From Escherichia coli (lineage in GTDB: Bacteria > Pseudomonadota > Gammaproteobacteria > Enterobacterales > Enterobacteriaceae): a DNA stretch of 64,000 nucleotides. The notes below the pieces were generated by a model. That model was given only the letters and a program-made list of their open reading frames with translations. It did no database searches and was not told where the DNA came from. Made by a program: the position numbers and the translations under genes. Shown piece by piece: positions 1,009 through 45,926 of this stretch; the stretch's first letter is position 1, and every line of letters begins with the position of its first letter. Location: NCBI RefSeq assembly GCF_044647545.1, contig NZ_CP172818.1; one strand, 5' to 3'.

Positions 1009-1027
1009 CTCGCACTTTATTAACAAG

Positions 1028-1052
1028 CTAAAAAGGCGCCGAAGCGCCTTTA
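1028..1052. terminator. Bidirectional rho-independent terminator between convergent bglA and gcvP
   Basis: GC hairpin aggcgcc-gaa-gcgcct with A-run on one side and T-rich on the other. Confidence 0.6.
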
Positions 1053-1073
1053 GAAGATAGTCGAATCAGTGAA

Positions 1074-3947
1074 TTACTGGTATTCGCTAATCGGTACGCA
1101 GGAGCAGAACAGGTTACGGTCGCCGTAAACATCATCCAGACGTTTCACTGTCGGCCAGTATTTGTCTGCCACGCCTGCCGGGAATACCGCAACTTCACGG
1201 CTGTACGGATGCGCCCACTCGGCGACCAGTTCGCTCTGAATGTGCGGCGCGTTCACCAGCGGGTTATCTTCCAGCGGCCAGACACCGGCTTTCACCTGGT
1301 CAATTTCTGCGCGGATAGCCAGCATCGCGTCGATAAAGCGATCCAGTTCCACTTTGCTTTCAGATTCAGTCGGTTCAACCATCAGCGTACCCGCCACCGG
1401 GAACGACATGGTCGGCGCGTGGAAACCGTAGTCGATCAGACGCTTGGCAATATCCAGTTCGCTGATGCCGGTTTCTTCTTTCAGCGGGCGAATATCGAGA
1501 ATACATTCGTGCGCCACGCGACCGTCGCGACCGGTATACAGCACCGGGAAGGCATCCTGCAGGCGGCTGGCAATATAGTTGGCGTTAAGAATTGCCACCT
1601 GGCTTGCTTTTTTCAGCCCTTCTGCGCCCATCATGCGGATGTACATCCAGCTGATTGGCAGAATGGATGCGCTACCGAACGGTGCCGCAGAAACCGCGCC
1701 CTGACGGGTTAACATGCCTTCAATTTGTACCACGCTATGACCTGGCACAAACGGTGCCAGATGCGCTTTCACGCCGATCGGTCCCATACCAGGGCCGCCG
1801 CCACCGTGCGGAATGCAGAAAGTTTTATGCAGGTTAAGGTGCGAGACGTCCGCGCCAATAAAGCCCGGTGAGGTGATGCCGACCTGGGCGTTCATGTTCG
1901 CGCCATCAAGGTAAACCTGACCGCCGAACTGATGCACGACTTCACACACTTCACGGATCGTTTCTTCATACACGCCGTGGGTGGAAGGATAGGTCACCAT
2001 GATACAGGAGAGGTTATCGCCCGCCTGTTCCGCTTTCGCGCGCAGATCAGTCAGATCGATGTTGCCGTTTTTATCACACGCCACAACCACCACCTGCATT
2101 CCTGCCATATGTGCAGAAGCGGGGTTAGTTCCGTGCGCAGAAGCCGGGATCAGGCAGATATCACGATGCCCTTCGTTGCGGCTTTCATGATAATGACGAA
2201 TCGCCAGCAGGCCCGCGTATTCGCCCTGTGCGCCAGAGTTCGGCTGCATACAAACGGCGTCGTAACCGGTCAGTTTCACCAGCCAGTCAGCCAGCTGCGC
2301 AATCATCTGCTGATAACCTTCGGCCTGCTCCGGCGGGCAGAACGGGTGCAGTTCGGCAAATTCCGGCCAGGTGATTGGGATCATCTCGGCGGCGGCGTTC
2401 AGTTTCATGGTGCAGGAACCCAGCGGGATCATCGCCTGATTCAGCGCCAGATCTTTACGCTCCAGCGAGTGCATATAGCGCATCATTTCGGTTTCGCTGT
2501 GGTAGCGATTAAACACCGGATGGGTGAGGATTTCGACGTCGCGCAGCATCGCAGGCTGAATAGAGCGGCTGTCGTGAGCCACGTCTTTGTCCAGCGTGTC
2601 GATGTCCAGGCCGTGGTTATCCCCCAGCAGTACGCTGAAAAGCTGCATCACGTTTTCACGCGTGGTGGTTTCATCAAGGGTGATCCCAACCGCGTTCAGG
2701 ATATCGCTACGCAGGTTGATTTCAGCCGCTTCGGCACGCGCCAGTACGCCCGCCTTGTCTGCCACTTCCACACACAAAGTGTCGAAATAGTGCGCATGAC
2801 GCAGTTTCAGACCTTTTTGTTGCAGGCCCGCCGCCAGGATATCGGTCAGACGGTGGATGCGGTTAGCGATACGTTTCAGGCCAACCGGGCCGTGATAAAC
2901 GGCATACAGGCTGGCGATGTTTGCCAGCAGTACCTGGGAAGTACAAATGTTGGAGTTCGCTTTCTCACGGCGAATATGTTGCTCGCGAGTCTGCATCGCC
3001 ATGCGCAGAGCGGTATTGCCAGCTGCATCTTTCGATACACCGATAATACGGCCCGGCATTGAGCGTTTGTATTCATCTTTCGCCGCAAAGAATGCTGCGT
3101 GTGGGCCACCGTAGCCCATCGGCACACCGAAGCGTTGCGCCGAACCAAAGACAATATCCGCGCCCTGTTTACCCGGCGCAGTTAACAGCACCAGCGCCAT
3201 AATATCGGCGGCGACACTGACCACAATTTTGCGTGATTTCAGTTCGCTGATGAGCGCAGTGTAGTCGTGGATTTCACCGGTTGTGCCAACCTGCTGTAAC
3301 AGCACGCCGAAGACGTCCTGATGGTCGAGCACTTTTTGCGCGTCATCGACAATCACTTCAAAACCAAAGGTTTCAGCACGAGTACGGACCACATCGAGCG
3401 TTTGCGGATGAACGTCAGAAGCAACGAAGAAGCGGTTGGCATTTTTCAGTTTGCTGACGCGTTTCGCCATCGCCATTGCTTCGGCGGCAGCAGTGGCCTC
3501 GTCCAGAAGAGAGGCAGAGGCCATATCCAGCCCGGTCAAATCCAGCGTTACCTGCTGGAAGTTGAGCAGTGCTTCAAGGCGGCCCTGGGAGACTTCAGGT
3601 TGATACGGAGTATACGCGGTATACCAGCCCGGATTTTCCAGCATGTTACGCAGAATAACCGGCGGTAGCTGCACGGCGGTGTAACCCATGCCGATGTAAG
3701 ACGTGAAGCGTTTATTGCGACTGGCAATAGCCTTGAGTTCCGCCAGCGCGGCGTATTCGGTCGCCGGTGCGCCAACCTGCGGCGGGGTCGCAAGCTGAAT
3801 ATCTTTCGGCACAATCTGGCCGGTCAGCGCGTTTAACGATTGTGCGCCAACGGCATTCAGCATTTCTTGCTGTTGCGCGGCGTCCGGTCCGATATGGCGT
3901 TCAATAAAAGCGCCGCTGTTTTCAAGCTGGCTTAACGTCTGTGTCAT
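1074..3947 (-). CDS. gcvP: Glycine dehydrogenase (decarboxylating), glycine cleavage P-protein
   Basis: 957-aa product from canonical start [10 protein letters not shown] (ORF track extends further upstream in frame); PLP-dependent P-protein sequence. Confidence 0.95.
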
Positions 3948-4065
3948 GAGCGATGGTTCCTGAAACGTGCAGTGAATTGTGAACCTCTCTCCTTGCGAAG
4001 AGAGTGAGGGTGAGGCGTAAAAGTTCCTCACCCTGATCCTCTCCCGCAGAAGAGGAATAAAGCCG

Positions 4066-4455
4066 TTACTCGTCTTCTAACAATGCTTCGTATGCGGTCG
4101 CATCCAGCAGTGATTCCAGTTCGCTTTCATCGCTGGCTTTGATTTTAAAGATCCAGCCGCCTGCATACGGTTCGCTGTTCACCAGTTCCGGGGAATCGCT
4201 CAGTGCGTCGTTTACCGCCACGATTTCACCGCTTACTGGCGCATAAATGTCTGACGCCGCTTTTACTGATTCGGCAACCGCGCAGTCATCGCCCGCGCTA
4301 ACCGTTGCGCCCACTTCCGGCAGGTCAACAAACACCATATCGCCTAACAGCTCCTGGGCATGTTCGGTGATACCAACGGTGTAAGTGCCGTCGGCTTCTT
4401 TACGCAGCCATTCGTGTTCTTTGCTGTATTTCAGTTCTGCTGGTACGTTGCTCAT
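4066..4455 (-). CDS. gcvH: Glycine cleavage system H protein (lipoyl carrier)
   Basis: 129-aa product [16 protein letters not shown]..., lipoyl-lysine region [19 protein letters not shown]. Confidence 0.95.
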
Positions 4456-4478
4456 CAATCAATCTCCAAAAAAGTAAA

Positions 4479-5573
4479 TCACGCGACGGCTTTACCGTTA
4501 CGCACAAAAACAGGTTTCGTCACTTTAACCGGCATTTCACGGTTGCGAATTTGTACAATCGCTGTTTCACCAATACCTTCCGGCACGCGCGCCAGCGCAA
4601 TGCTGTAACCCAGCGTCGGGGAGAAAGTACCGCTGGTGATAATGCCTTCATGCTGGTTGCCCTGCGCATCGGTAAAGCGTACCGGCAGTTCATTACGCAG
4701 CACGCCTTTTTCGGTCATCACCAGACCAACCAGTTTTTCTGTGCCATGCTCACGCTGCACTTCCAGGGCTTCACGACCGATGAAGTCACGATCTGCCGGT
4801 TCCCAGGCGATAGTCCAGCCCATATTGGCGGCTAAAGGAGAGATGGTTTCGTCCATCTCCTGACTATAAAGATTCATACCCGCTTCCAGACGCAGCGTGT
4901 CACGCGCGCCCAGGCCGCATGGCTTAACGCCCGCTTCCACCAGCGCGCGCCAGAAATCCGCCGCTTTTTCATTGGGCAGCGCAATTTCATAGCCCGCTTC
5001 ACCGGTATAACCAGTGGTGGCAATAAACAGATCGCCCGCCTGCACGCCAAAGAACGGTTTCATCCCTTCCACCGCCTGACGCTGGGCGTCATTAAACAGT
5101 GTGGCAGCTTTTGCCTGCGCATTCGGCCCTTGTACGGCGATCATGGAAAGGTCATCACGAACGGTAATTTCGATGCCGAAAGGTTCAGCGTGTTGGGTAA
5201 TCCAGGAGAGGTCTTTTTCGCGGGTGGCGGAGTTAACAACGAGGCGGAAGAAATCTTCAGTAAAGTAGTAGACGATGAGGTCATCTATCACACCGCCAGA
5301 GGCATTCAACATCCCCGAGTAAAGGGCTTTGCCGCTTTTGGTGAGTTTCGCCACATCGTTCGCCAGCAGATAACGCAGAAACTCCCGAGTGCGGCTGCCG
5401 CGAAGATCGACGATGGTCATATGTGACACATCAAACATTCCGGCATCGGTACGTACCGCATGATGTTCGTCGATTTGCGAACCGTAATGCAGCGGCATCA
5501 TCCAGCCGTGGAAATCCACCATGCGAGCGCCGCAAAGCGTGTGTTGTTCGTACAAAGGAGTCTGTTGTGCCAT
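4479..5573 (-). CDS. gcvT: Aminomethyltransferase, glycine cleavage T-protein
   Basis: 364-aa product from [13 protein letters not shown]...; ORF track includes an in-frame upstream extension that I do not call. Confidence 0.95.
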
Positions 5574-6020
5574 CTTGTCCTCATTGAATAAGCGGGGCTG
5601 ACAACTTTTCCATGGCGAAATTATCACCACGAAACCCAGCATCGGAGCCACTCCCGGTCCCCAACGCAATCGTTCTCTTTTGCCTGAACTTACCACCGAA
5701 ACAGACTGTTAACCATAAGGTAAAATTGATCATCACATTAGCTTATGGTTAAAAAATGCAAAAATCGCAACAGAATAAAAAACCAAAAAATGAACAAATC
5801 TCTATATAAAGATAAACAGATGAGAAAGTTAATTTGATTAATGCAATATTAAGAACTAAAAAAATGTCAAAAAACACTAAATCAAAAAATCATGACATTA
5901 GAAAATATAATGCGAAAACGGAGGTGAAATTAGTTTATTTCAAATGAGGAAAATCTCCCGGCGAAAAAACCGGGAGATGAAAGTGTGATGGGTATCAAAT
6001 AAACAACAGAGGAGAAATTT
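5574..6020 (-). promoter_or_regulatory. gcvTHP promoter/upstream regulatory region (AT-rich, ~450 bp)
   Basis: Long AT-rich non-coding interval upstream of gcvT; in E. coli this region carries GcvA/Lrp/CRP/PurR sites (not individually mapped here). Confidence 0.5.
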
Positions 6021-7223
6021 TTAACGCAGCCATTCAGGCAAATCGTTTAATCCCATTGCCTGGCGGATAAGTTGTGGTTTAACGCCAGGAAGCGTGTCGG
6101 CCAGTTTTAAACCAATATCACGCAGCAATTTTTTCGCCGGATTGGTACCGGAAAACAGATCGCGGAATCCCTGCATACCAGCCAGCATCAGCGCCGCACT
6201 GTGCTTACGGCTACGCTCATAGCGACGCAGGTAAATGTACTGCCCGATGTCTTTACCCTGACGATGCAACCGTTTCAGTTCAGCAATCAGCTCTGCAGCA
6301 TCCATAAAGCCGAGATTTACCCCCTGCCCCGCCAGCGGGTGAATAGTATGCGCGGCGTCGCCCACCAGCGCCAGACGGTGTGCGGCAAACTGGCGCGCAT
6401 AACGCCCCGTTAGCGGGAACACCAGGCGCTCACTTTCAACCTTGCATAAGCCCAGGCGATTATCAAAAGCGATATTTAACGCGCGATTAAATTCGTCTTC
6501 GCCTGCCTGCTGCATCCGCTGCGCTTCCTCTGGCGACAGTGACCAGACAATCGAGCAAAGATGCGGATCGCTAAGCGGCAAAAAGGCCAGAATGCCTTCG
6601 CCATGAAAAACCTGCCGCGCCACCGCATCATGCGGTTCTTCCGTGCGAATGGTCGCTACCAGCGCGTGATGCTGATAATCCCAGAAAGTCAGCGGAATAT
6701 CGGCTTTGTTGCGCAACCAGGAATTAGCGCCGTCCGCGCCAATCACCAGACGCGCCGTTAACATACTGCCATCTTTCAACGTCAGGAAGGTTTCATTTTC
6801 TCCCCAGGCGACCTGCTGTAATTCTGCGGGGGCCAACAGAGTGATATCTGACGACTGCTGCGCTTTGTTCCACAGCGCGTAGTGAATCACCGAGTTTTCA
6901 ACGATATGCCCAAGATGGCTATAGCCCATGCTTTGATCGTCAAACGAAATGTGACCAAAACTGTCTTTGTCCCACACTTCCATACCGTGATAACAACTGG
7001 CCCTACGAGAGAGAATGTCCTGCCAGACGCCAAGACGGGTGAGTAATTTTTCGCTGGCGGCATTGATAGCCGAAACGCGCAGTTGTGGTGGTGCATCCGC
7101 CGCCAGAGGTTCCGGTACGCGCTGCTCCAGTACGGCAACGCGTAAGCCGCTACCCTGCAAGCCGCAGGCAACCGCCAGCCCCACCATGCCGCCGCCAACA
7201 ATGGCTACATCAACACTTTGCAT
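6021..7223 (-). CDS. ubiI: FAD-dependent 2-octaprenylphenol hydroxylase
   Basis: 400-aa product with N-terminal FAD-binding GGGMVG motif; matches VisC/UbiI. Confidence 0.9.
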   Translation of the reverse strand: MQSVDVAIVGGGMVGLAVACGLQGSGLRVAVLEQRVPEPLAADAPPQLRVSAINAASEKLLTRLGVWQDILSRRASCYHGMEVWDKDSFGHISFDDQSMGYSHLGHIVENSVIHYALWNKAQQSSDITLLAPAELQQVAWGENETFLTLKDGSMLTARLVIGADGANSWLRNKADIPLTFWDYQHHALVATIRTEEPHDAVARQVFHGEGILAFLPLSDPHLCSIVWSLSPEEAQRMQQAGEDEFNRALNIAFDNRLGLCKVESERLVFPLTGRYARQFAAHRLALVGDAAHTIHPLAGQGVNLGFMDAAELIAELKRLHRQGKDIGQYIYLRRYERSRKHSAALMLAGMQGFRDLFSGTNPAKKLLRDIGLKLADTLPGVKPQLIRQAMGLNDLPEWLR

Positions 7224-7245
7224 TGTTTATTCCTTAAAACCGCCT

Positions 7246-8424
7246 TCAACGCGCCACCCACCCGAGGGTGCGCTGCGCCAGCACATCGCGTGCTGGGGTG
7301 AATAATTCCATTGCCATCAGCCCGATGTTGCGCCCGACAACCAGCGGCCCCCAACGGTTGGCAAAAAGATGTACAAGGCTGTCCGTGACGCCGATGGTTG
7401 CTTCGCGATCGCGCTGTCGACGCTGCTGATAACGGCACAATACGCCGTAATCACCCATGTCTTCTCCGCGCTCCTGCGCCTGAGTCAGGGTTTCCGCAAG
7501 GCTCATGACATCTCGCATACCGAGGTTGAACCCTTGCCCGGCAATCGGGTGCAGAGTTTGCGCCGCATTGCCCACCAGCACGGTACGATGGGTAATAGGT
7601 CTGGCGGCGCGGGTTAACGCCAGCGGATAAGCACTGCGTTTACCAGCGTGGGTAATTTTCCCAAGTCGCCAACCAAAGGCCGACTGGAGTTCACGGCAAA
7701 ACTTCTCGTCGCTCCAAGACAGTACCTCTTCGCGCCGTTCCAGTGGATGACACCAGACCAGCGAACAGCGTCCGTCAGACATCGGCAACATCGCCAGCGG
7801 GCCATATTGTGTAAAGCGTTCAAAAGCGCGCCCTTCATGCGCAACGGAAGTCGCAACGTTGGCAATCACAGCCAGTTGTTCGTAAGGCTCCTGCTGCCAG
7901 TCAACGCCGCACACGGTGGCTAACGCTGAATGGGTGCCATCAGCGGCTACCAGCACGCAGCCCGTCAGCGTCTCGCCACTCTCCAGCGTCACTTCAACGT
8001 GACTCTGAGTACGGGCAACGTTAGCCACGCGATCAGGACAATGCAGCGTTACGCCAGGTGCTTTGCGCAGCAATGCAAACAGCCGTTGCCCGACATTATG
8101 CAATTCGACAACCTGCCCCAGCGCCGCCAGTTGGTAATCTTCTGCGGCGAGGGTGACGAATCCGGCATGACCACGATCGCTGACATGCACGGTAGTGATG
8201 GCGGTTGCGCAATCAGCCAGAGATTGCCAGACGCCGATGCGCGCCAGTTGCTGACAGGTACCCGCCGCCAGCGCAATAGCCCGTCCATCAAAGCCCGGAT
8301 GAGCATGTGACTCTGGCGCAGTCGCTTCAATCAAATGTACCGGCAGCGCCCCGTGACTTAACCGGGAAATAGCCAGCGCCAGCGTCGCGCCCGCCATGCC
8401 GCCACCGACGATGATTACGCTCAT
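7246..8424 (-). CDS. ubiH: 2-octaprenyl-6-methoxyphenol hydroxylase
   Basis: 392-aa FAD monooxygenase, N-terminal IVGGGMAG; matches UbiH. Confidence 0.9.
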   Translation of the reverse strand: MSVIIVGGGMAGATLALAISRLSHGALPVHLIEATAPESHAHPGFDGRAIALAAGTCQQLARIGVWQSLADCATAITTVHVSDRGHAGFVTLAAEDYQLAALGQVVELHNVGQRLFALLRKAPGVTLHCPDRVANVARTQSHVEVTLESGETLTGCVLVAADGTHSALATVCGVDWQQEPYEQLAVIANVATSVAHEGRAFERFTQYGPLAMLPMSDGRCSLVWCHPLERREEVLSWSDEKFCRELQSAFGWRLGKITHAGKRSAYPLALTRAARPITHRTVLVGNAAQTLHPIAGQGFNLGMRDVMSLAETLTQAQERGEDMGDYGVLCRYQQRRQRDREATIGVTDSLVHLFANRWGPLVVGRNIGLMAMELFTPARDVLAQRTLGWVAR

Positions 8425-9746
8425 TGCTTTCTCGCAGCAGCCATCAACGCTTCGATTTCTTCCGGCTTTTTCACCACGCTGGCGGTGAGGTTTTCGTTGC
8501 CGGTTTCGGTAATCACAATGTCGTCTTCAATACGAATGCCGATACCGCGATATTGTTCTGGCACTTCTGCATCCGGCGCAATATACAGACCAGGCTCTAC
8601 GGTCAGTACCATCCCCGGTTCCAGAATACGCGAGCGATCCTGACCATAAACACCAACGTCATGAACATCCAGTCCTAACCAGTGGCTAAGGCCATGCATA
8701 AAGAAAGGACGATGGGCGTTCTGAGCGATCAGTTCATCAACATCACCTTTCAGGATGCCGAGTTTTACCAGGCCGCTAACCATGATGCGCACCACTTCAC
8801 CAGTGACTTCCTGCATGGAAGTTCCCGGACGATACAGCCGCAGGCTGGTTTCAAGAGACTCCAGCACAATGTCGTAGATTTCACGCTGGGCCAGGGTGAA
8901 TTTGCCGTTGACCGGGAAGGTGCGGGTAATATCGCCCGCGTAACCTTTGTATTCACAACCCGCGTCAATCAACACCAGGTCACCGTCGCGCAGTTCACTC
9001 TCGTTTTCGGTGTAGTGCAGAATGCAGCCATTTTCACCGCTGCCGACAATGGTGTTATAGGAAGGATAGCGCGCACCGTGGCGGTTAAATTCGTGGTGAA
9101 TTTCGCCTTCCAGGTGGTACTCGAACATTCCCGGACGGCATTTTTCCATCGCCCGGGTATGCGCCAGGGCGGTGATTTCCCCCGCGCGGCGAAGTACGGC
9201 AATCTCTTCTGGTGATTTGAACAGGCGCATTTCATGAACAATGGGACGCCAGTCGATCATCGTTGCCGGGGCAGTGAGATTCTGTCGCGAGCCTTTACGC
9301 AGCTTTTCCAGCGCGCTGTTCACGATTTCATCAGCATAGGTATATTCGCCCTGAGCGTGATAAACCACATCCAGACCATTAAGCAGTTGATAAAGTTGCT
9401 GATTGATTTCGCTGAATGCCAGTGCGCGGTCAACGCCCAGTTTCTCTGGCGCGGCATCCTGGCCTAAGCGACGACCAAACCAGATCTCTGCCGTCAGGTC
9501 GCGAACGCGGTTAAACAAAACGCTGTGGTTATGAGTGTCGTCGCTTTTAATCAGCACCAGCACCGCTTCCGGTTCGTTAAAGCCGGTGAAGTACCAGAAG
9601 TCACTGTTCTGACGATAGGGGTATTCGCTGTCGGCGCTACGTGTTACTTCTGGTGCAGCAAAAATCAGCGCGGCGCTGCCGGGTTGCATTTGCTCCACCA
9701 GGGCCTGACGGCGACGCTGAAACTCTTGCCGGGATATCTCACTCAT
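8421..9746 (-). CDS. pepP: Xaa-Pro aminopeptidase (aminopeptidase P)
   Basis: 441-aa product from MSEISRQEFQRRRQAL; M24 family; 4-bp overlap with ubiH. Confidence 0.95.
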   Translation of the reverse strand: MSEISRQEFQRRRQALVEQMQPGSAALIFAAPEVTRSADSEYPYRQNSDFWYFTGFNEPEAVLVLIKSDDTHNHSVLFNRVRDLTAEIWFGRRLGQDAAPEKLGVDRALAFSEINQQLYQLLNGLDVVYHAQGEYTYADEIVNSALEKLRKGSRQNLTAPATMIDWRPIVHEMRLFKSPEEIAVLRRAGEITALAHTRAMEKCRPGMFEYHLEGEIHHEFNRHGARYPSYNTIVGSGENGCILHYTENESELRDGDLVLIDAGCEYKGYAGDITRTFPVNGKFTLAQREIYDIVLESLETSLRLYRPGTSMQEVTGEVVRIMVSGLVKLGILKGDVDELIAQNAHRPFFMHGLSHWLGLDVHDVGVYGQDRSRILEPGMVLTVEPGLYIAPDAEVPEQYRGIGIRIEDDIVITETGNENLTASVVKKPEEIEALMAAARKQ

Positions 9747-9771
9747 AACACTCTCCTTACGTTTTTTGTTT

Positions 9772-10350
9772 TTAGTGTAGAGTCGGTTTTTGTACTTCTG
9801 GCGCGGTCGGTTGCGGATGAGTAAAGGTGTCGTGGCATAACAGCGCGGCAACACGAACGTATTCGATGATCTCTTCAAGCGACATTTCAAGCTCTTCCTG
9901 ATCTTCGTCTTCGTCGTAGCCCAGCTGCGCGATGTTACGCAGATCGTCGATGGCTTCACCGGTTTCTCCGGTCACTTTGTCCAGCTTCGGTTGCGTAACG
10001 CCAAGACCAAGCAGGAAGTGATTGACCCAACCTGCCAGCGCATCAGCCCGATCGAAAACGCTGACATCATCGCCATCAGGCAGATAAAGCTGAAAAAGGA
10101 AGCCGTCATCCTGCAGGGCATCGCTGGTGGCAGAGTGCATTTTACGCAGTGCCTGTGCCAGCTCATGACCGAAAGCCATGCCTTCGTTCGTCAGGTCGTG
10201 AAGTAGCGGCAGCCATGAGCTGTCATCGTTACCGCCACATATCATCCCACTGATTAAACCATGCATCTCAGCAGGGGTCAGACCCGTCCCTTGTTGGTTC
10301 AGATACTGGTTCATTTCGTTGTAACCAGGCATTTCGTTCTGTATAGACAT
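9772..10350 (-). CDS. ygfB: UPF0149 family protein YgfB
   Basis: 192-aa product [15 protein letters not shown]... Confidence 0.85.
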
Positions 10351-10451
10351 AAGCATTCGTCGTCAAAGGGAGGAATATTCATGATATGCTACCACTTTGG
10401 GCCCTGGTGGACCAGAAAAGGGCTTGTCTCTTCTCATCAGGGTAGCTATAG

Positions 10452-10847
<396 letters not shown>

Positions 10848-10888
10848 CACTTTTCGGTTTACTGTGGTAGAGTAACCGTGAAGACAAA

Positions 10889-11072
10889 ATTTCTCTGAGA
10901 TGTTCGCAAGCGGGCCAGTCCCCTGAGCCGATATTTCATACCACAAGAATGTGGCGCTCCGCGGTTGGTGAGCATGCTCGGTCCGTCCGAGAAGCCTTAA
11001 AACTGCGACGACACATTCACCTTGAACCAAGGGTTCAAGGGTTACAGCCTGCGGCGGCATCTCGGAGATTCC
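10889..11072 (+). ncRNA. ssrS: 6S RNA (RNA polymerase sigma70-holoenzyme regulator)
   Basis: Sequence atttctctgagatgttcgcaagcgggccagtcccctgagccgatatttcatacc...ggagattccc recognised as E. coli 6S RNA; -10-like tagagtaacc just upstream. Confidence 0.9.
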
Positions 11073-11146
11073 CTTCTTATCTGGCACCAGCCATGACGCA
11101 ACTACCCGAACTCCCACTGACATTATCCCGACAAGAAATCCGCAAA

Positions 11147-11695
11147 ATGATTCGGCAACGTCGTCGTACGTTAACGCCGGAACAACAGCAGGAAATGGGT
11201 CAACAAGCCGCTACCCGGATGATGACTTATCCCCCGGTGGTGATGGCACATACGGTCGCTGTATTCCTCTCTTTTGATGGCGAACTCGACACCCAGCCAC
11301 TCATAGAACAACTCTGGCGCGCCGGTAAGCGCGTATATCTTCCAGTTTTGCATCCCTTTAGTGCCGGTAATTTGCTGTTCCTGAATTACCATCCGCAAAG
11401 CGAACTGGTGATGAACAGGTTGAAGATCCATGAGCCAAAACTGGATGTGCGTGACGTGCTACCCCTTTCCCGATTAGACGTGTTGATCACACCGCTGGTC
11501 GCCTTTGATGAGTACGGTCAGCGCCTGGGAATGGGCGGTGGTTTTTATGATCGGACCTTACAAAACTGGCAGCACTATAAAATGCAACCGGTGGGTTATG
11601 CGCATGATTGTCAGTTGGTGGAAAAACTCCCCGTTGAAGAGTGGGATATCCCTCTTCCTGCGGTGGTTACACCGTCGAAAGTCTGGGAGTGGTAA
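11147..11695 (+). CDS. ygfA: 5-formyltetrahydrofolate cyclo-ligase
   Basis: 182-aa product MIRQRRRTLTPEQQQEMGQQAA...; lies immediately downstream of ssrS (ORF track shows a longer in-frame ORF overlapping 6S RNA). Confidence 0.85.
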   Translation: MIRQRRRTLTPEQQQEMGQQAATRMMTYPPVVMAHTVAVFLSFDGELDTQPLIEQLWRAGKRVYLPVLHPFSAGNLLFLNYHPQSELVMNRLKIHEPKLDVRDVLPLSRLDVLITPLVAFDEYGQRLGMGGGFYDRTLQNWQHYKMQPVGYAHDCQLVEKLPVEEWDIPLPAVVTPSKVWEW

Positions 11696-11754
11696 GGGCG
11701 ACACACCTGCATCGCCCTGATTGACATCGTTGATTCTTTAACCTAATTTAGTGA

Positions 11755-11897
11755 GTAAGGGTAAGGGAGGATGACTCCTCCCCTGAGACTGACTGTTAAT
11801 AAGCTGGGAAACTTATGAGTAACAGTACAATCAGTATGATGACAAGTCGCATCATAACCCTTCTCCTTCAAGCCCTCGCTTCGGTGAGGGCTTTACC
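11755..11897 (+). ncRNA. sibC: SibC antitoxin sRNA antisense to ibsC (boundaries approximate)
   Basis: Antisense to ibsC; ends at intrinsic terminator hairpin gccctcgc-ttcg-gtgagggc followed by ttt (11872-11894). Confidence 0.55.
11796..11855 (-). CDS. ibsC: Type I toxin IbsC (19-aa hydrophobic peptide)
   Basis: Minus-strand translation gives MMRLVIILIVLLLISFPAY*; too short for the ORF track. Confidence 0.8.
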   Translation of the reverse strand: MMRLVIILIVLLLISFPAY

Positions 11898-12030
11898 GTT
11901 ACAGCCCCATGCTGCCCTGCCATCGTAAATCCCCATTAAATAAACACAACGCATTGATCTGACTTTGATTTATTTTCTGGAGCAGACTCGCAAAGTAGAA
12001 TGCGCAATGCGGCAACGGTGTGGAGAAGGG

Positions 12031-12063
12031 ATAAAAAAATCGGGCAAGTCAGTGACCTGCCCG
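12031..12063 (-). terminator. Rho-independent terminator downstream of serA
   Basis: Hairpin cgggcaagtcagtgacctgcccg; on the minus strand it is followed by a T-run (plus-strand ataaaaaaat). Confidence 0.65.
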
Positions 12064-12084
12064 TTAATTTTCAGAGAAGGGGAA

Positions 12085-13317
12085 TTAGTACAGCAGACGG
12101 GCGCGAATGGTACCCGGAATAGCTTTCATTGCCTGCAGCGCTTTTTCGGCAACGTCTTCGTCGGCTTCAATATCAATAACTACATAACCCATCTGGGCGG
12201 AAGTTTGTAGATATTGCGCGGCGATGTTGACGCCCTGCTCGGCAAAAATTTTGTTGAGCGCAGTTAGCACGCCCGGACGGTTTTCGTGGATGTGCATCAG
12301 ACGACGCCCACCGTGCAGTGGCAGCGAGACTTCCGGGAAGTTCACCGCAGAGAGCGTTGAGCCATTGTCAGAATACTTGATCAATTTACCCGCAACTTCC
12401 AGGCCGATATTCTCCTGCGCTTCCTGAGTCGAACCGCCAATGTGTGGCGTCAGAAGGACGTTGTCGAATTCACACAGCGGAGAGGTAAATGGATCGCTAT
12501 TGGTTGCCGGTTCCGTCGGGAATACGTCGATTGCCGCCCCCGCCAGATGTTTGCTCGCCAGCGCGTCACACAGCGCCGGAATATCCACCACAGTACCGCG
12601 CGAAGCATTAATCAGCAGCGAGCCGGGCTTCATTAGTGAAATCTCTTTCGCACTCATCATATTTTTGGTGGACGGATTCTCTGGTACATGCAGACTCACC
12701 ACATCGCTCATATTCAGCAGGTCAGAAAGATGCTGTACCTGAGTGGCGTTGCCCAGCGGCAGTTTGTTTTCAATATCATAAAAGTAAACATACATTCCCA
12801 GCGATTCAGCCAGAATGCCCAATTGAGTACCAATATGACCATAGCCGATGATACCCAGCTTTTTGCCGCGCGCTTCAAAAGAACCCGCCGCCAGTTTGTT
12901 CCACACGCCACGGTGCGCTTTAGCATTGGCTTCCGGCACGCCGCGCAATAGCAGCAGCAGTTCGCCAATCACCAGCTCCGCAACAGAGCGCGTATTTGAG
13001 AACGGTGCGTTAAATACCGGGATACCGCGTTTTGCCGCCGCATCCAGATCAACCTGGTTTGTTCCGATACAGAAACAGCCAATAGCGACCAGTTTTTCTG
13101 CGGCGTTGATCACGTCTTCAGTCAGATGGGTACGGGATCGCAGGCCGATGAAGTGGGCATCGCGGATGGATTCTTTTAATTGTTCATCATCCAGCGCGCC
13201 TTTGTGAAATTCGATGTTGGTGTAACCCGCTGCACGAAGGCTTTCAAGCGCCTTTTGGTGCACGCCTTCTACCAGCAGAAACTTAATCTTGTCTTTCTCC
13301 AGCGATACCTTTGCCAT
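12085..13317 (-). CDS. serA: D-3-phosphoglycerate dehydrogenase
   Basis: 410-aa product MAKVSLEKDKIKFLLVEGVHQ... with C-terminal ACT domain. Confidence 0.95.
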   Translation of the reverse strand: MAKVSLEKDKIKFLLVEGVHQKALESLRAAGYTNIEFHKGALDDEQLKESIRDAHFIGLRSRTHLTEDVINAAEKLVAIGCFCIGTNQVDLDAAAKRGIPVFNAPFSNTRSVAELVIGELLLLLRGVPEANAKAHRGVWNKLAAGSFEARGKKLGIIGYGHIGTQLGILAESLGMYVYFYDIENKLPLGNATQVQHLSDLLNMSDVVSLHVPENPSTKNMMSAKEISLMKPGSLLINASRGTVVDIPALCDALASKHLAGAAIDVFPTEPATNSDPFTSPLCEFDNVLLTPHIGGSTQEAQENIGLEVAGKLIKYSDNGSTLSAVNFPEVSLPLHGGRRLMHIHENRPGVLTALNKIFAEQGVNIAAQYLQTSAQMGYVVIDIEADEDVAEKALQAMKAIPGTIRARLLY

Positions 13318-13572
13318 TTACCCAATCCTGTCTTTTGAAATGTTGTGTGCGGATTTGCATCCGCCTTTCAACATATCAAAAAATAATATTGCGGCAATAT
13401 GAACGTTTGCGTCGCGATGTTGAGGAAATATCACGCAAAGGTATTTCTTGGATGAATATGCTGGTTTAGAGGATTTATTTAGAGCAATCGACAATAGCCA
13501 GGTAAAAACGTGACACATGTCACCAAATTTAATGAAGAGAATTTTTTTAACGGGGGAGGTTCCCCCGTCAGA

Positions 13573-14232
13573 TCATTTCACAATGGTTTTGACACCGTCA
13601 GGTGTGCCAATCAGCGCAACGTCCGCGCCACGGTTAGCAAACAAGCCAACAGTCACCACGCCAGGAATCGCATTTATGGCGTTTTCCATCGCTATCGGGT
13701 CAAGGATTTCCATGCCGTGGACGTCGAGGATCACGTTGCCGTTATCGGTCACCACGCCCTGACGGTATTCCGGACGACCGCCCAGTTTCACCAGCTGGCG
13801 CGCCACTGCACTACGTGCCATCGGGATAACTTCTACTGGCAGCGGGAATTTGCCCAGAATATCAACCTGCTTGGAGGCGTCGGCAATACAGATAAATTTT
13901 TCCGCAACCGAAGCAATGATTTTTTCACGGGTCAGCGCCGCGCCGCCGCCTTTGATCATTTGCATGTGGCCGTTGATTTCATCTGCGCCATCAACGTAGA
14001 TGCCAAGGCTGTCGACTTCGTTGAGATCAAAAACGTGAATGCCGAGGCTTTTCAGTTTTTCAGTGGAAGCATCTGAACTGGAAACGGCCCCTTCAATCTG
14101 GCCTTTCATTGTACCGAGCGCGTCAATAAAGTGTGCGGCGGTGGAACCTGTACCTACACCAACAATGGTGCCGGGCTGAACATACTGAAGTGCCGCCCAT
14201 CCTACTGCTTTTTTCAATTCATCCTGGGTCAT
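13573..14232 (-). CDS. rpiA: Ribose-5-phosphate isomerase A
   Basis: 219-aa product [32 protein letters not shown]... Confidence 0.95.
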
Positions 14233-14287
14233 GATCGTTTCGCCTGTGGTATGAAATTTCACACGCATTATATACAAAAAAAGCGAT

Positions 14288-14518
14288 TCAGACCCCGTTG
14301 GCAAGCCGCGTGGTTAACTCATCCATAAAATATCGCGCAATGGCGGGCATCCCCTTTCGCCCGGCAAATAAAGCATACAACGGTCTGGGTATGCCGCTCC
14401 ACGGTGCAAACAGGCGCACCAGTTCACCGTTCGCAAGCCCCTGTTTACAGGCAAATTGAGGCAATAACGCCACGCCATTCAACCCAACCGGGACGCGAAC
14501 TCGCCGAGCAAAATGCAT
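14288..14518 (-). pseudogene. yqfE: C-terminal fragment of a LysR-family regulator
   Basis: 76-aa ORF resembling only the C-terminal tail of a LysR-type effector domain; no N-terminal HTH portion upstream. Confidence 0.6.
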
Positions 14519-14584: not shown

Positions 14585-14845
14585 ATGTCTATTAAGCAAA
14601 ATTTATTTGCCGCATTATTTCTTTGCACTCTCACAGGACACGCATTTGCCGCAACCGAGATACACAAACCGGACAATAATCTTGAACAGTTATCAAAAGT
14701 GAGCATGTCCACACACAATAGCAATCCAGCGGGCGTTGAAAGCCAAATCAAAAGAGAAAGCGGAAGAGTTACAAGCCAGCAATTACTACATCAGTTCTTT
14801 CTCCGTAAAAATTATATCCACGCCACTGTAATTTTCTATAAATAG
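14585..14845 (+). CDS. Hypothetical small exported protein (86 aa)
   Basis: Strong SD (aaggag) 7 nt upstream of ATG; N-terminal signal-peptide-like segment MSIKQNLFAALFLCTLTGHAFAA. Confidence 0.45.
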   Translation: MSIKQNLFAALFLCTLTGHAFAATEIHKPDNNLEQLSKVSMSTHNSNPAGVESQIKRESGRVTSQQLLHQFFLRKNYIHATVIFYK

Positions 14846-15528
14846 CCCCTCTGTTTAACGGAAGCATGGAATTATTCCATGCTCCTCTGCCAAAATGAAA
14901 TAAAAAATGAAAAAAGCTAATCTTACAGGTACGTTGGTTTGCTTTGTCGCATGCCTTATTTTTTTGTCGTCCGGTGATATTTTTCGTGAAAAGCCAATCG
15001 CTCTAATATGGTTCCTTCGACAAAACATACTCTTTTTTACGGGAACTCTTGCGTGGTGTCTGATGACGCTGACGATGTGTTTATCGTTGCGTTCATCATG
15101 GCTTAACAAAGTGCTGGGCGGTCTGGATAAAGTATGGCGAATCACATAAGTGGGCAGGAATATGCGCCATAGCGTTTGCTTTCGCCCACTGGCTGGATGA
15201 AAAATTACCCCAGTTATTCGTCGCCTTTGGCTGGCTTACTCACCCTGGTAAAATCGTTGATATTAACCTGACGCCAGTACAAGAAAATTGGCTTCATGCG
15301 GGACTGTTAGCGGGTGAATGCGCAATGTTTATTATTATAGCGATGGTTTGCGTATCTCTTAGCAAAAGAGTTCCCTATCATTTATTTCATCTTGTTCACC
15401 GTTTGTTCCCCGTCTTTTATCTGGCAATTGCCTTTCATGTGTTTACTGCTTTGTTTAAATCATACTGGTGGAACTCCTGCTGCGTATTTATTAATTTTAA
15501 TTACTATTCCGGGCGTCTTTGCGGCTTT

Positions 15529-15537
15529 CATTTCGCT
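15529..15537. repeat. Left copy of 9-bp target-site duplication (catttcgct) flanking IS1
   Basis: Identical 9-mer directly abuts both IS1 ends. Confidence 0.85.
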
Positions 15538-16307
15538 GGTAATGACTCCAACTTACTGATAGTGTTTTATGTTCAGATAATGCCCGATGACTTTGTCATG
15601 CAGCTCCACCGATTTTGAGAACGACAGTGACTTCCGTCCCAGCCTTGCCAGATGTTGTCTCAGATTCAGGTTATGTCGCTCAATGCGCTGAGTGTAACGC
15701 TTGCTGATTACGTGCAGCTTTCCCTTCAGGCGGGATTCATACAGCGGCCAGCCATCCGTCATCCATACCACGACCTCAAAGGCCGACAGCAGGCTCAGAA
15801 GACGCTCCAGTGTGGCCAGAGTGCGTTCACCGAAGACGTGCCACAACCGTCCTCCGTATCCTGTCATACGCGTAAAACAGCCAGCGCTGACGTGATTTAG
15901 CACCGACGTAGCCCCACTGTTCGTCCATTTCAGCGCAGACAATCACATCACTGCCCGGCTGTATGCGCGAGGTTACCGACTGCGGCCTGAGTTTTTTAAT
16001 AAAGTGACGTAAAATCGTGTTGAGGCCAACGCCCATAATGCGGGCGGTCGCCCGGCATCCAACACCATTCATGGCCATATCAATGATTTTCTGGTGTGTA
16101 CCGGGTTGAGAAGCGGTGTAAGTGAACTGCAGTTGCCATGTTTTACGGCAGTGAGAGCAGAGATAGCGCTGATGTCCGGCAGTACTTTTACCGTTACGCA
16201 CCACGCCTTCAGTAGCTGAGCAGGAGGGACAACTGATGGAGATGGAAGCCACGGGAGCACCTCAAAAACACCATCATACACTAAATCAGTAAGTTGGCAC
16301 CATTACC
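15538..16307 (-). mobile_element. IS1-family insertion sequence (770 bp), divergent isoform
   Basis: Terminal inverted repeats ggtaatgactccaacttactgat / atcagtaagttggcaccattacc; InsA and InsB homologous ORFs on minus strand; flanked by 9-bp direct repeat. Confidence 0.92.
15553..16252 (-). pseudogene. insAB: IS1 insA-insB region; insA fused in-frame to insB' but insB then frameshifted (defective transposase)
   Basis: ORF 15827-16252 = [13 protein letters not shown]...[16 protein letters not shown]...[13 protein letters not shown]; 4-nt insertion at the A6C slippery site (cgtcactttattaaaaaactc) puts insA in the insB frame; a further indel (~2 nt) shifts frame so the rest of InsB is ORF 15553-15942. 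Confidence 0.8.
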
Positions 16308-16316
16308 CATTTCGCT
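16308..16316. repeat. Right copy of 9-bp target-site duplication (catttcgct) flanking IS1
   Basis: Identical to 15529-15537. Confidence 0.85.
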
Positions 16317-17082
16317 GCTGAAATTCAAACGGTAGTAAAAACAAGCATCAGGCTACCATTAAAAACATTGTTAACCATCCAGGACAAATTACCGAAGTCA
16401 CCCTGGAACTGGAACATGCCATCGACTATTCTCCGGGGCAGTTTGCATTCTTAACGTTCGCACACAGTAAAGAATCTCACCCTTTTACTATCGCTTCATA
16501 CACCAAAGAGAAGAACACGTTGCGCTTTGCCATCAAAAATTTAGGGGATTATACCTCTACCCTTGCATCCTCGATAAAAATCGGCCAGTCCGCCTTCGTT
16601 GAAGGGCCATGGGGAAAGTTTGATTTAGACTCTCCCTTGCTCCCACCAGGTCTGGATAGCAGGAGGCATCGGCATTACCCCCTTTATCGCCCAGCTTGAG
16701 TATCGTAAACATCATGGCGCGTCCTCTGTTCCTGTGGATCTCTGGTATTACGTCAGCCGAAGCGAGGATGCCTGGTATGTTGATAAACTGACCTCACTTT
16801 GTGCCCAGGCCAGGGTCACACTGCATCTGCTTGATGCGCATAAAGGTGAGCGCCTACAGGCGCACTATCTTACTGATAAAATAGCAAATAAAGGTGACAC
16901 CCATTTCTGGTTTTGCGGCCCACAGAGTTTTGCCAAAGCGCTCAGCAAAGGGTTATATGAAAATGGGATTGCCAGCCAAAACTTCCATTACGACCGTTTT
17001 TGTATGCGTTAAATGCTCTGTACCCAACGCAAAATTGTGTCATAGTGCAGGAAAAAGCATTTACCAGGAGCAGACAACAGCA

Positions 17083-36485: not shown

Positions 36486-36779
36486 AAATTATCCTTATTT
36501 TATTTTTAGGGTACCGTCCGGCGGTAAAAATAAAATACTCGTGCGGTTTAATGAAAGCAATTGAGAAGAAAAACCCCATAAACCAAAATAATAAAACCTT
36601 AAATAACAACAATATGAAATTGATATTTTTAAAGTCAACTTTGTATTTGTTATATTTATCACAAAATCAACATTTTGTTTGTTATTGTATTTGTGATGCA
36701 TATCTCTATTTATTTATTGAATGTTCGAAAACATACTTTTCTAATGCAATGTTTTTTCGCTATACCCCTTTATAGATTC

Positions 36780-37321
36780 TGAATTCTCACCTGTCGGCTA
36801 TTTTCTCCTTACCTCATGTGACATATTCCCCATTTTACTCAAAAAAAATTTATATAAAAGCACCTTTTTCATAAACCTTATTTCCCCCAAAAAAATCTTT
36901 TTTTATCCCTTTGGGCGTTTTTCCTGTTTTTTCCCCCTTTTTTTCTTTTTTACCCCTTAAAAAAAGGAACGCGGCATTTTTTTGCCCTACGAAAAAATCG
37001 TAAAATTTGCCGAGCCGGGTCTGGGTTTTAAGATCCCGTTTTTGAAAAGGGGAAAAAAATTTCCACCCGTAATAAGGCGGGGGTTTATCAGGGATTAAAG
37101 CCTTCAACCCCCCACCAGAAACCGGCAAAAAAAAAAATTGAGTGAGCTTCCACATAAAAAATTCAGAAAAAGGCGCGGTTTATACCACCTACAACACCAT
37201 TGAAGCATTAAAAGATCGTCTGATTGTCCGTCAGTTGCCAACTCAACTGGAGAATTCCCATATACATACAACTACAAAACAACAAACATAAACAAAACCC
37301 ACAAAAAAAAATATCTCTAAA
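36780..37321. other. Compositionally aberrant homopolymer-rich non-coding segment (origin unresolved; possible assembly/synthetic artefact)
   Basis: Dense runs of A7-11, T5-9, C5-6, G5; no credible ORF, RBS or RNA fold; cmtB-tktA spacer is ~885 bp here versus a few hundred bp as I recall for K-12. Confidence 0.5.
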
Positions 37322-37350
37322 GTAATAAAAAGGGCCGCTTTCGCGGCCCT
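37322..37350 (-). terminator. Rho-independent terminator immediately downstream of tktA
   Basis: Minus-strand hairpin agggccgc-gaaa-gcggccct followed by ttttattac. Confidence 0.75.
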
Positions 37351-37371
37351 TCTCACAAAGCATCTTACCGA

Positions 37372-41425: not shown

Positions 41426-41528
41426 AAGGGTTGGATTTGCGAAACACAAGTATGCGCTAATTATCGCCTTAAATGAAAAGAGGGCCGCATCAAGGACTAA
41501 CACAGGTCCCATACCACCAAACTCCAAC

Positions 41529-43542
<2,014 letters not shown>

Positions 43543-43550
43543 AGCGAACC

Positions 43551-43682
43551 TCAAATTATTTTATTAAGTGTAAAACAGTTAACGACTATCGCAGCCTGGA
43601 ACTGCGATAACAACCCATAAGCACATGGATTTTCCAGCAGTGAATGCTGACGCTCCAACTGCGCAACCGGTTTCTTTTTCAT
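43551..43682 (-). CDS. yqgB: Small protein YqgB (43 aa)
   Basis: Minus-strand [46 protein letters not shown] just upstream of speA. Confidence 0.7.
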
Positions 43683-43817
43683 AACATTATTAAGCACATA
43701 ACCGAACGTAAGTGTGACAGTTCGGCGAAACCACGAGAAAACTCTTGTTTTTACAAGAGCGCCCTTGTTCAGTCCTCAGTAACTGTAACCAGCTCTTGAA
43801 TCCTGAGAAGCGCCGAG

Positions 43818-44033
43818 ATGGGTATAACATCGGCAGGTATGCAAAGCAGAGATGCAGAGTGCGGGGAACGAATCTTCACCAGAACGGTGAGACAGGTTAA
43901 GCAGCAGACAACGGTTCATTATTTCGTATCACCTCCACGGCCGCCTGTTAAGACGAACCCACAAGCCAAAACTCTGATTTCAACCCGGCTGGAAGTGGCA
44001 ACACGAAAGAAACGTCGTGTGCTTTTTATTTAA
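43818..44033 (+). CDS. yqgC: Small hypothetical protein (71 aa), possibly YqgC
   Basis: ORF of the expected size and position in the speA-metK interval; no other support. Confidence 0.35.
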
Positions 44034-44296
44034 GCCGCGCGCCGCGTTTTATACCCCACAATGGCAGAAAATTGCAAAAGATAAATACGCAGAATGCCAG
44101 CATTGTCAGGAAAAATTTCCAGCCACGTTTTTAAAAGAATGAGACACGATTCAAAAAAAAGTGGAAATCGGGTGAAGAATTGACCTAAAATAGCCATCCA
44201 GATGTTAATCCATCCATACCGATTAACACTCAGACTGCCAGTGTTTTTAACCTGCAGAGTCGTGGTAGGATCCGCTACCACAGAAAATCCACACAA
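44030..44296 (-). CDS. yqgD: Small hypothetical protein, possibly YqgD
   Basis: 88-aa ORF in metK upstream region; weak. Confidence 0.3.
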
Positions 44297-44336
44297 CAGT
44301 TTGAGCTAACCAAATTCTCTTTAGGTGATATTAAAT

Positions 44337-45491
44337 ATGGCAAAACACCTTTTTACGTCCGAGTCCGTCTCTGAAGGGCATCCTGACAAAATTGCTGACC
44401 AAATCTCTGATGCCGTTTTAGACGCGATCCTCGAACAGGATCCGAAAGCACGCGTTGCTTGCGAAACCTACGTAAAAACCGGCATGGTTTTAGTTGGCGG
44501 CGAAATCACCACCAGCGCCTGGGTAGACATCGAAGAGATCACCCGTAACACCGTTCGCGAAATTGGCTATGTACATTCCGACATGGGCTTTGACGCTAAC
44601 TCCTGTGCGGTTCTGAGCGCTATCGGCAAACAGTCTCCTGACATCAACCAGGGCGTTGACCGTGCCGATCCGCTGGAACAGGGCGCGGGTGACCAGGGTC
44701 TGATGTTTGGCTACGCAACCAATGAAACCGACGTGCTGATGCCAGCGCCTATCACCTATGCACACCGTCTGGTACAGCGTCAGGCTGAAGTGCGTAAAAA
44801 CGGCACTCTGCCGTGGCTGCGCCCGGACGCGAAAAGCCAGGTGACTTTCCAGTATGACGACGGCAAAATCGTTGGTATCGATGCTGTCGTGCTTTCCACT
44901 CAGCACTCTGAAGAAATCGACCAGAAATCGCTGCAAGAAGCGGTAATGGAAGAGATCATCAAGCCGATTCTGCCGGCTGAATGGCTGACTTCTGCCACCA
45001 AATTCTTCATCAACCCGACCGGTCGTTTTGTTATCGGTGGCCCGATGGGTGACTGCGGTCTGACTGGTCGTAAAATTATCGTTGATACCTACGGCGGCAT
45101 GGCACGTCACGGTGGTGGTGCATTCTCTGGTAAAGATCCATCAAAAGTGGACCGTTCCGCAGCGTACGCAGCACGTTATGTCGCGAAAAACATCGTTGCT
45201 GCTGGCCTGGCCGATCGTTGTGAAATTCAGGTTTCCTACGCAATCGGCGTGGCTGAACCGACCTCTATCATGGTGGAAACTTTCGGTACCGAGAAAGTGC
45301 CTTCTGAACAACTGACTCTGCTGGTACGTGAGTTCTTTGACCTGCGTCCATACGGTCTGATTCAGATGCTGGATCTGCTGCACCCGATCTACAAAGAAAC
45401 CGCAGCATACGGTCACTTTGGTCGCGAACATTTCCCGTGGGAAAAAACCGACAAAGCGCAGCTGCTGCGCGATGCTGCCGGTCTGAAGTAA
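44337..45491 (+). CDS. metK: S-adenosylmethionine synthetase
   Basis: 384-aa product [32 protein letters not shown]... Confidence 0.97.
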
Positions 45492-45511
45492 TCTTTCTTC
45501 ACCTGCTTTCA

Positions 45512-45542
45512 AAGGCCAGCCTCGCGCTGGCCTTTTTCTTTT
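45512..45542 (+). terminator. Rho-independent terminator of metK
   Basis: Hairpin aaggccagc-ctcgc-gctggcctt followed by tttctttt. Confidence 0.75.
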
Positions 45543-45926
45543 ACCTCACCGCGGTGGATAGGCGTTCACGCGGCATCCGGCAAAAAGCTGCCCGCACAAT
45601 AACATCATTCTTCCTGAACACGTTTTACCGCAAATTATCATCGCTACTGAAACCGATTACACCAACCACACCAGACAAAGATTTGTAATATTTTCATATT
45701 ATTATTCGGTTTTCACAGTTGTTACATTTCTTTTCAGTAAAGTCTTAATTGCAGATAACAGCGTTTAATCTATGATGATATAACTCAATTATTTTCATGC
45801 ACTTAAATCATAACTAAGATAAATGTTAGTGTAAGCGATTACACTGATGTGATTTGCTTCACATCTTTTTACGTCGTACTCACCTATCTTAATTCACAAT
45901 AAAAAATAACCATATTGGAGGGCATC

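Follow-up and report, generated by a model that had tools for sequence, protein, structure and literature searches.

We consider here a broken gene in a 64,000-nucleotide stretch of the Escherichia coli chromosome (assembly GCF_044647545.1, contig NZ_CP172818.1), referred to throughout as 'the window'. The gene, at positions 14907–17012, would in its intact form encode a membrane flavocytochrome of the NADPH oxidase (NOX)/ferric reductase (FRE) type. In the window it is interrupted by the insertion sequence IS1 and, as the record is written, by four further changes of reading frame. The gene was inactivated once in an ECONIH1-like clone of E. coli, by IS1, which inserted after codon 210 and duplicated 9 bp of its target. 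The other lesions are private to this record, statistically over-clustered and co-localized with DNA that E. coli K-12 lacks, and non-biological junk occurs elsewhere in the window. Comparison of the sequences leads us to regard IS1 as probably (at about 0.86) the only real lesion, the others being consensus or assembly artefacts of a record with a K-12-like structural template. An earlier note on this DNA had taken the gene to be inactivated in multiple independent ways, a feature that is most likely not real.

The IS1 insertion itself is beyond question, and the earlier note was right to place an IS1 in the gene. The element has the size (about 768 bp), terminal inverted repeats (about 23 bp), 9-bp duplication and insA and insB genes with an A6C frameshift site that characterize the IS1 family. 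Its ends are GGTAATGACTCCAACTTACTGAT and ATCAGTAAGTTGGCACCATTACC, and it lies between two copies of CATTTCGCT (Table 1). The same insertion occurs in 33 of 5,426 complete E. coli genomes, ECONIH1 and 32 others; in ECONIH1 the site and duplication are the same, and the two halves of the gene are annotated as intact coding sequences of 217 and 238 aa. As a disrupted accessory gene it is already known, from RefSeq annotation in more than 30 E. coli genomes, and is an ordinary event. In five complete genomes (e.g. NZ_AP024687.1) an IS1A-type element stands at apparently the same site of the NOX-like gene, the locus being 98.1% identical from end to end; IS1 copies may have undergone gene conversion there, or IS1 may have inserted independently at a hot spot.

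The remaining lesions were placed by aligning the gene, with the IS removed, to ECONIH1 and to four intact orthologues (94–99% identity). Eight columns are private to the window, and all five other sequences are invariant at each of them. Besides the IS1, four corrections are needed to restore the frame (lesions 1–4, Table 1). The earlier note had counted at least three, and there are indeed more; lesion 2 was overlooked, the wrong frame happening to meet no stop before the IS1. The alignment to intact orthologues that the note had proposed placed every indel, and not always where it was expected. A frame change had been seen near 15146, correctly: the A inserted in lesion 1, at codon 78, two codons ahead of the haem ligand H80, creates a TAA at 15147–15149. 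Another had been assigned to a run of five A residues at 16336–16340. This run is wild type in every aligned orthologue, and the change lies instead in the additional C of lesion 3, ten bases upstream. The last had been sought near 16640–16690; it exists, and lies just 5' of that range (lesion 4). The net extra length is +1−2+779+1+1 = 780 bases, a multiple of three, and so the last segment is back in the starting frame.

Private changes of the same sort are found upstream of these lesions and between them. The neighbouring DUF1471 gene has an additional A at 14750 and lacks a G at 14804/14805, which leaves 18 codons out of frame and the length of the product still 86 aa. This frameshifted product is an NCBI singleton, WP_400164852.1 (hypothetical protein), present on one contig. 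The IS1 is 770 bp long owing to two private indels, the loss of GC at 15839/15840 and the gain of AATA at 15998–16001, and it has a private substitution at 16049. The AATA adjoins the A6C site of programmed frameshifting, and with it InsA would be read in frame into InsB (a 141-aa open reading frame, 15827–16252, minus strand); the loss of GC would then truncate the fusion, and the pair is probably a coincidence of errors. None of the approximately 74,846 places occupied by IS1 in the 5,426 genomes is identical to the window copy by megablast, the best match being 99.2%.

Searches among relatives failed to find the lesions anywhere else. By megablast, with the locus queried both with and without its IS1, they are absent from all 248 complete genomes that carry the gene, where the best identity, 99.4%, corresponds to all eight deviant columns. 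The nearest relatives with the identical IS1 insertion carry none of the other lesions, and the extra lesions are likewise absent from NCBI and Logan contigs of three further relatives (L008, L009 and L011). Lesion k-mers sought in 15 loci were shared by none. Eight metagenome contigs, scanned with a pattern that accepts either the lesion or the intact form, contain no lesion 40/41-mer, and at lesion 1 every one of them is of intact length.

Little time has been available for such changes to accumulate. Window and ECONIH1 are 100.000% identical over 1011–14480 (13,470 bp) and over 41566–46643 (5,078 bp), and with a further 1,007 bp of core sequence they show no differences at all; identity of this order in the flanks means that almost no evolutionary time separates the window from its ECONIH1-type relatives. 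In the 2,485-bp NOX island, by contrast, 13 events distinguish the two (eight indel events and five substitutions, three of the latter no more than 7 nt from an indel), against six small differences in the 59,353 bp shared with K-12. This is a 52-fold excess (Fisher p = 1.5e-14). If all core differences are assumed to be neutral, and only one quarter of core sites free to vary, about 0.8 events are expected in the island, and the probability of 13 or more is 7e-12.

The distribution of damage across the window is equally uneven. The whole window was aligned to ECONIH1, and the ECONIH1 positions were marked for the presence or absence of a K-12 counterpart. Seven segments, 9.4 kb of 68.7 kb, have no such counterpart, and all seven are damaged in the window (Table 1). 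Of the 174 columns at which window and ECONIH1 differ, 160 fall inside these segments and two more lie within 50 bp of them (162/174). Three have been shortened to low-complexity, homopolymer-rich junk (36833–37312, 41475–41566 and 56108–57266). The prohibitin-family gene is exact for some 270 bp and then decays progressively into homopolymer runs in which G and C are replaced by the neighbouring base, which looks like a consensus artefact. Within the TRAP-transporter segment only 56788–57032 can be aligned to ECONIH1, at 83% identity and with 32 gap openings. Homopolymer and A/C-rich filler of this kind is not biological sequence.

Where segments are missing altogether, the outline of K-12 shows through. 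The junction at 14480/14481 joins a LysR remnant to the 3' end of an azoreductase gene, the missing DNA comprising the N-terminus of LysR and the azoreductase gene, and its position is identical to that of the K-12 yqfE locus, with ECONIH1 alleles on both sides. This junction joined to a DUF1471 gene occurs in none of the 5,426 complete genomes. An 8-bp deletion at 36562 likewise reproduces the K-12 structure with ECONIH1 bases. The source contig is 4,499,902 bp in length and the complete genomes of relatives with the same IS1 insertion are 4.94–5.31 Mb, which fits loss or collapse of accessory DNA genome-wide.

We infer a technical cause from these comparisons. The record would be a consensus, exact in regions that agree in structure with a K-12-like template; where the strain has DNA with no counterpart in the template, it would be unreliable, truncated or degenerate. 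The four additional frameshifting indels, the +1/−1 pair in the DUF1471 gene and the −2/+4 indels of IS1 would then all be errors made in building the record. The earlier note had allowed that one homopolymer-associated lesion might be a sequencing error. The direction was right, but artefact, as we read it, would extend to all four lesions rather than to one.

Ordinary random error in a generally low-quality assembly (e.g. one made from long reads only), with no template involved, is an unlikely substitute. Several of the changes do have the expected form, short runs altered in length such as AAA to AAAA (14750), GG to G (14804), GGGAAA to GGAA (15471) and GCGC to GC (15839), and a C-tract difference in scpA is of the same type. 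Random error should be spread evenly, however, and these changes are not: none falls in the 13,470, 5,078 and 1,007 bp of core sequence and nearly all of the differing columns lie in, or within 50 bp of, DNA that K-12 lacks. The C at 16326, the AATA in IS1, and the A accompanied by T to G at 16627 are not homopolymer changes, and the exact copy of the K-12 deletion junction is left unexplained.

The interpretation offered by the earlier note, that the gene has long been free of selection, before or after the arrival of IS1, and has gathered several independent and real frameshifts, is very improbable. The gene is certainly non-functional through IS1, and it is accessory, present in 248 of 5,426 complete genomes and deleted with its whole island from K-12, so that its decay would not be surprising in principle. 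Yet relatives that share the insertion exactly are free of further lesions, and the flanks are 100.000% identical to those of relatives over 18.5 kb. The neutral rate is the upper limit for change in a pseudogene, and the excess over neutral expectation computed above (P = 7e-12) would break it. Mutation-accumulation experiments in E. coli yield roughly ten base substitutions for each indel, and real decay is dominated by substitutions; here, indels (eight events) outnumber substitutions (five). The IS1 itself and the DUF1471 gene, which retains its intact length, show the same type of lesion, and so do all the window's segments without a K-12 counterpart. Old pseudogenes are recognized by lesions common to related lineages and by a matching level of substitution in the gene and its surroundings, and this is not what is found. 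Since the lesions are likely to be artefacts, their number says nothing about how long selection has been relaxed.

Nor is it any more credible that the lesions are real and very recent, the product of a local burst of mutation or of targeted erosion of accessory DNA in one strain. Strict confinement of the damage to particular segments would agree with this, and NCBI accepted and annotated the record (WP_400164852.1). But what defines the damaged segments is their absence from another strain, K-12, of whose content a cell can have no 'knowledge'. Under a mismatch-repair mutator, homopolymers in the core would suffer as well, and 13.5 kb of core contain no differences. Runs of 35 A residues and A/C-rich filler beside untouched core DNA fit no known process in E. 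coli. That the private frameshifts and shortened A-rich stretches are the real DNA of a living strain is barely conceivable; were it so, some process would be selectively eroding horizontally acquired, non-core DNA and leaving adjacent core genes untouched.

Candidate causes of a more specific kind were also considered and rejected. A mismatch-repair mutator, local mutagenesis associated with IS1, the arrival of a decayed allele through recombination, and a mixed culture all fail, because the core is free of errors, the substitutions match no other allele, and a majority-rule consensus of a mixture would not produce the pattern. Among specific polishing and consensus programs, none that is known accounts for light damage here together with heavy damage elsewhere.

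Several points weigh against a template artefact as the explanation. It is deduced from comparison of sequences rather than from reads or quality values. Damage is slight in the 2.5-kb island (0.5%) and severe in other accessory segments, and no single software mechanism can be named for both. K-12-specific bases were sought in the damaged segments and none was found in the window; the 'template' is defined by structure only, and another genome poor in accessory DNA could fill the role. Finally, some private differences in shared DNA, in scpA, yggP and ansB, resemble ordinary, real variants.

These three genes can be described briefly. The scpA tract at 18347 is C5 in the window, C6 in ECONIH1 and GCCGCCC in K-12, and the loss of one base splits the gene. 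The 648-aa scpA product that results is shared by 38 public contigs, which come from several backgrounds, and relatives have tracts of five to eight C residues; either the tract is truly hypervariable, or the same sequencing error recurs. As a marker of a sublineage with the NOX-gene lesions the scpA frameshift was rejected: L008 has the scpA state and none of the other lesions. In yggP (minus strand), a plus-strand C to T change at 34484 turns a TGG (Trp) codon near the start into TAG; ECONIH1 and K-12 both have C. In ansB, three substitutions relative to ECONIH1 (58617, 58630 and 58888) fall within 272 bp of a core that is otherwise identical, and one of them is the K-12 allele. A small patch of genuine recombination may account for them.

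The gene order of the window is that of the E. coli chromosome, bglA-gcvTHP-ubiHI-pepP-serA-rpiA, followed by argP-scpABC, tkt-speAB-metK-galP and mutY-nupG. The NOX-like gene occupies a small accessory island with rpiA on one side and argP on the other. When intact, the island comprises, in order, a LysR regulator, an FMN (flavin mononucleotide)-dependent NADH-azoreductase, a DUF1471 (YdgH/BhsA/McbA) protein and the 441-aa flavocytochrome, which is annotated as 'ferredoxin reductase family protein'. By megablast, 248 of the 5,426 complete genomes (approximately 4.6%) have the island at the rpiA–argP site. The same interval in K-12 contains only the pseudogene yqfE, the rest of the island having been deleted. 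The pseudogene is thereby given a meaning: it is the stump of an island encoding a NOX-like flavocytochrome, an azoreductase-like flavoprotein and a DUF1471 protein.

Identification of the gene as NOX/ferric-reductase-like, as the earlier note had it, is supported by domains, structural relatives and motifs alike. The intact orthologue (strain SCU-301, WP_001571863.1; 441 aa) contains the Pfam domains Ferric_reduct (residues 45–174) and FAD_binding_8 plus NAD_binding_1 (residues 225–420). Its best solved relatives by phmmer are structures of SpNOX, the NADPH oxidase of Streptococcus pneumoniae (8qq7 and 8qt6, E about 1e-26), with human NOX5 ranking lower. The match to 8qq7 (E = 1.2e-26) extends over residues 136–425, that is, transmembrane helices 5 and 6 and the dehydrogenase domain; in the same search the first transmembrane helices gave no significant match to 8qq7 (4.1 bits).

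Hajjar et al. 2017 (PMC5676040) proposed sequence filters that define prokaryotic NOX, among them the FAD (flavin adenine dinucleotide)-binding motif H[PSA]F[TS][LIMV], and the orthologue passes every one. HPFTI occurs at residue 265 (approximately 16476–16490 in the window), and GIGITP at residue 327, inside IAGGIGITPF. The haem filter, two His-X12-14-His pairs at least 20 residues apart in transmembrane helices, is passed by H80-x13-H94 and H164-x12-H177, both pairs being within or overlapping hydrophobic stretches of the Ferric_reduct region. The filter for three to seven transmembrane helices and a C-terminal dehydrogenase is passed with hydrophobic segments across residues 1–216, as judged by a crude Kyte–Doolittle scan rather than by TMHMM. 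A CGP motif is also present in the FAD- and NAD(P)H-binding dehydrogenase domain encoded by the 3' part of the gene. By its sequence, then, the 441-aa protein is a bacterial NOX/FRE-type membrane flavocytochrome, with six predicted transmembrane helices, two b-haems and an FAD/NAD(P)H dehydrogenase domain, and is related to SpNOX. The same authors name an E. coli candidate, 'EcNOX', which may be the present gene.

Table 1. Features of the NOX island, and segments of the window without a K-12 counterpart
Feature	Positions in window	Strand	Length in ECONIH1	Basis, or state in window
LysR-family regulator remnant (equivalent of K-12 pseudogene yqfE)	14288–14518	-		Open reading frame list, K-12 annotation
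DUF1471 (YdgH/BhsA/McbA-family) small gene	14585–14845	+		Pfam, alignment to ECONIH1
NOX-like gene, 5' part: ferric-reductase transmembrane domain, codons 1 to about 211 of 441, H80/H94 and H164/H177	14907–15537	+		Alignment, Pfam
Lesion 1: +A at 15140, with substitutions at 15133 (C>T) and 15143 (T>C)	15133–15143	+		Private
Lesion 2: -GA at 15471/15472 (GGGAAA>GGAA), codon 189	15470–15473	+		Private
IS1 target-site duplication, left copy, 9 bp, CATTTCGCT	15529–15537	.		Same duplication in ECONIH1
IS1	15538–16307	-		770 bp here, 768 bp in relatives; InsA and InsB reading frames on minus strand
IS1 target-site duplication, right copy, 9 bp, CATTTCGCT	16308–16316	.		Sequence
NOX-like gene, 3' part: FAD/NAD(P)H dehydrogenase domain, HPFTI, GIGITP and CGP motifs	16317–17012	+		Alignment, Pfam, phmmer
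Lesion 3: +C at 16326 (GAAATT[C]AAACGG)	in 16317–17012	+		Private
Lesion 4: +A at 16627 with T>G at 16628 (TTTTACT>TTTAGACT)	in 16317–17012	+		Private
bglA–gcvP spacer			117 bp	20 bp left
LysR/azoR segment	14480/14481		1,346 bp	Removed, exactly at K-12's junction
NOX island			2,485 bp	13 lesions
Prohibitin-family gene	36563–37371		about 1,251 bp	Shortened to 796 bp
loiP–speB spacer			30 bp	4 bp lost
Hypothetical gene, speB–speA interval	41475–41566		935 bp	About 90 bp of filler ending in A35
TRAP-transporter operon	56108–57266		3.2 kb	1.16 kb of A/C-rich low-complexity filler

A practical caution follows for users of this record. Pseudogenes, frameshifts, odd repeats and low-complexity stretches of the window are to be distrusted where they fall in DNA that K-12-like genomes lack. 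The oddities at 36.8–37.3 kb, 41.5 kb and 56.1–57.3 kb probably share the same technical origin.

Set beside systems that are already known, the locus is in most respects conventional. Like other IS1 insertional pseudogenes of E. coli and Shigella, it has terminal inverted repeats, a 9-bp duplication and, in the window's relatives, a 768-bp element between two in-frame halves of the host gene that RefSeq annotates as separate coding sequences; unlike them, the window copy is 770 bp long with two private indels, which are probably errors. With the K-12 yqfE locus (rpiA-yqfE'-argP) it shares a 231-bp LysR remnant and the position of the deletion junction. The K-12 locus has neither the DUF1471 gene nor the NOX-like gene, whereas the window keeps both, with ECONIH1 alleles. 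The intact protein would be organized like SpNOX (PDB 8qq7 and 8qt6) and the proteins of the prokaryotic NOX/FRE family: the N-terminal part is a ferric-reductase transmembrane domain that carries two bis-His haem sites, and the C-terminal part is an FAD/NAD(P)H domain. It has the HPFTI and GIGITP motifs in common with them. It differs from SpNOX in being known here from sequence alone, and the gene is broken in the window. E. coli also possesses a split system, MsrQ (YedZ) plus Fre, in which a haem protein with a ferric-reductase domain takes electrons from a flavin reductase, as cited in PMC5676040. MsrQ has no fused dehydrogenase domain; the intact orthologue of the window gene has both modules in a single 441-aa chain.

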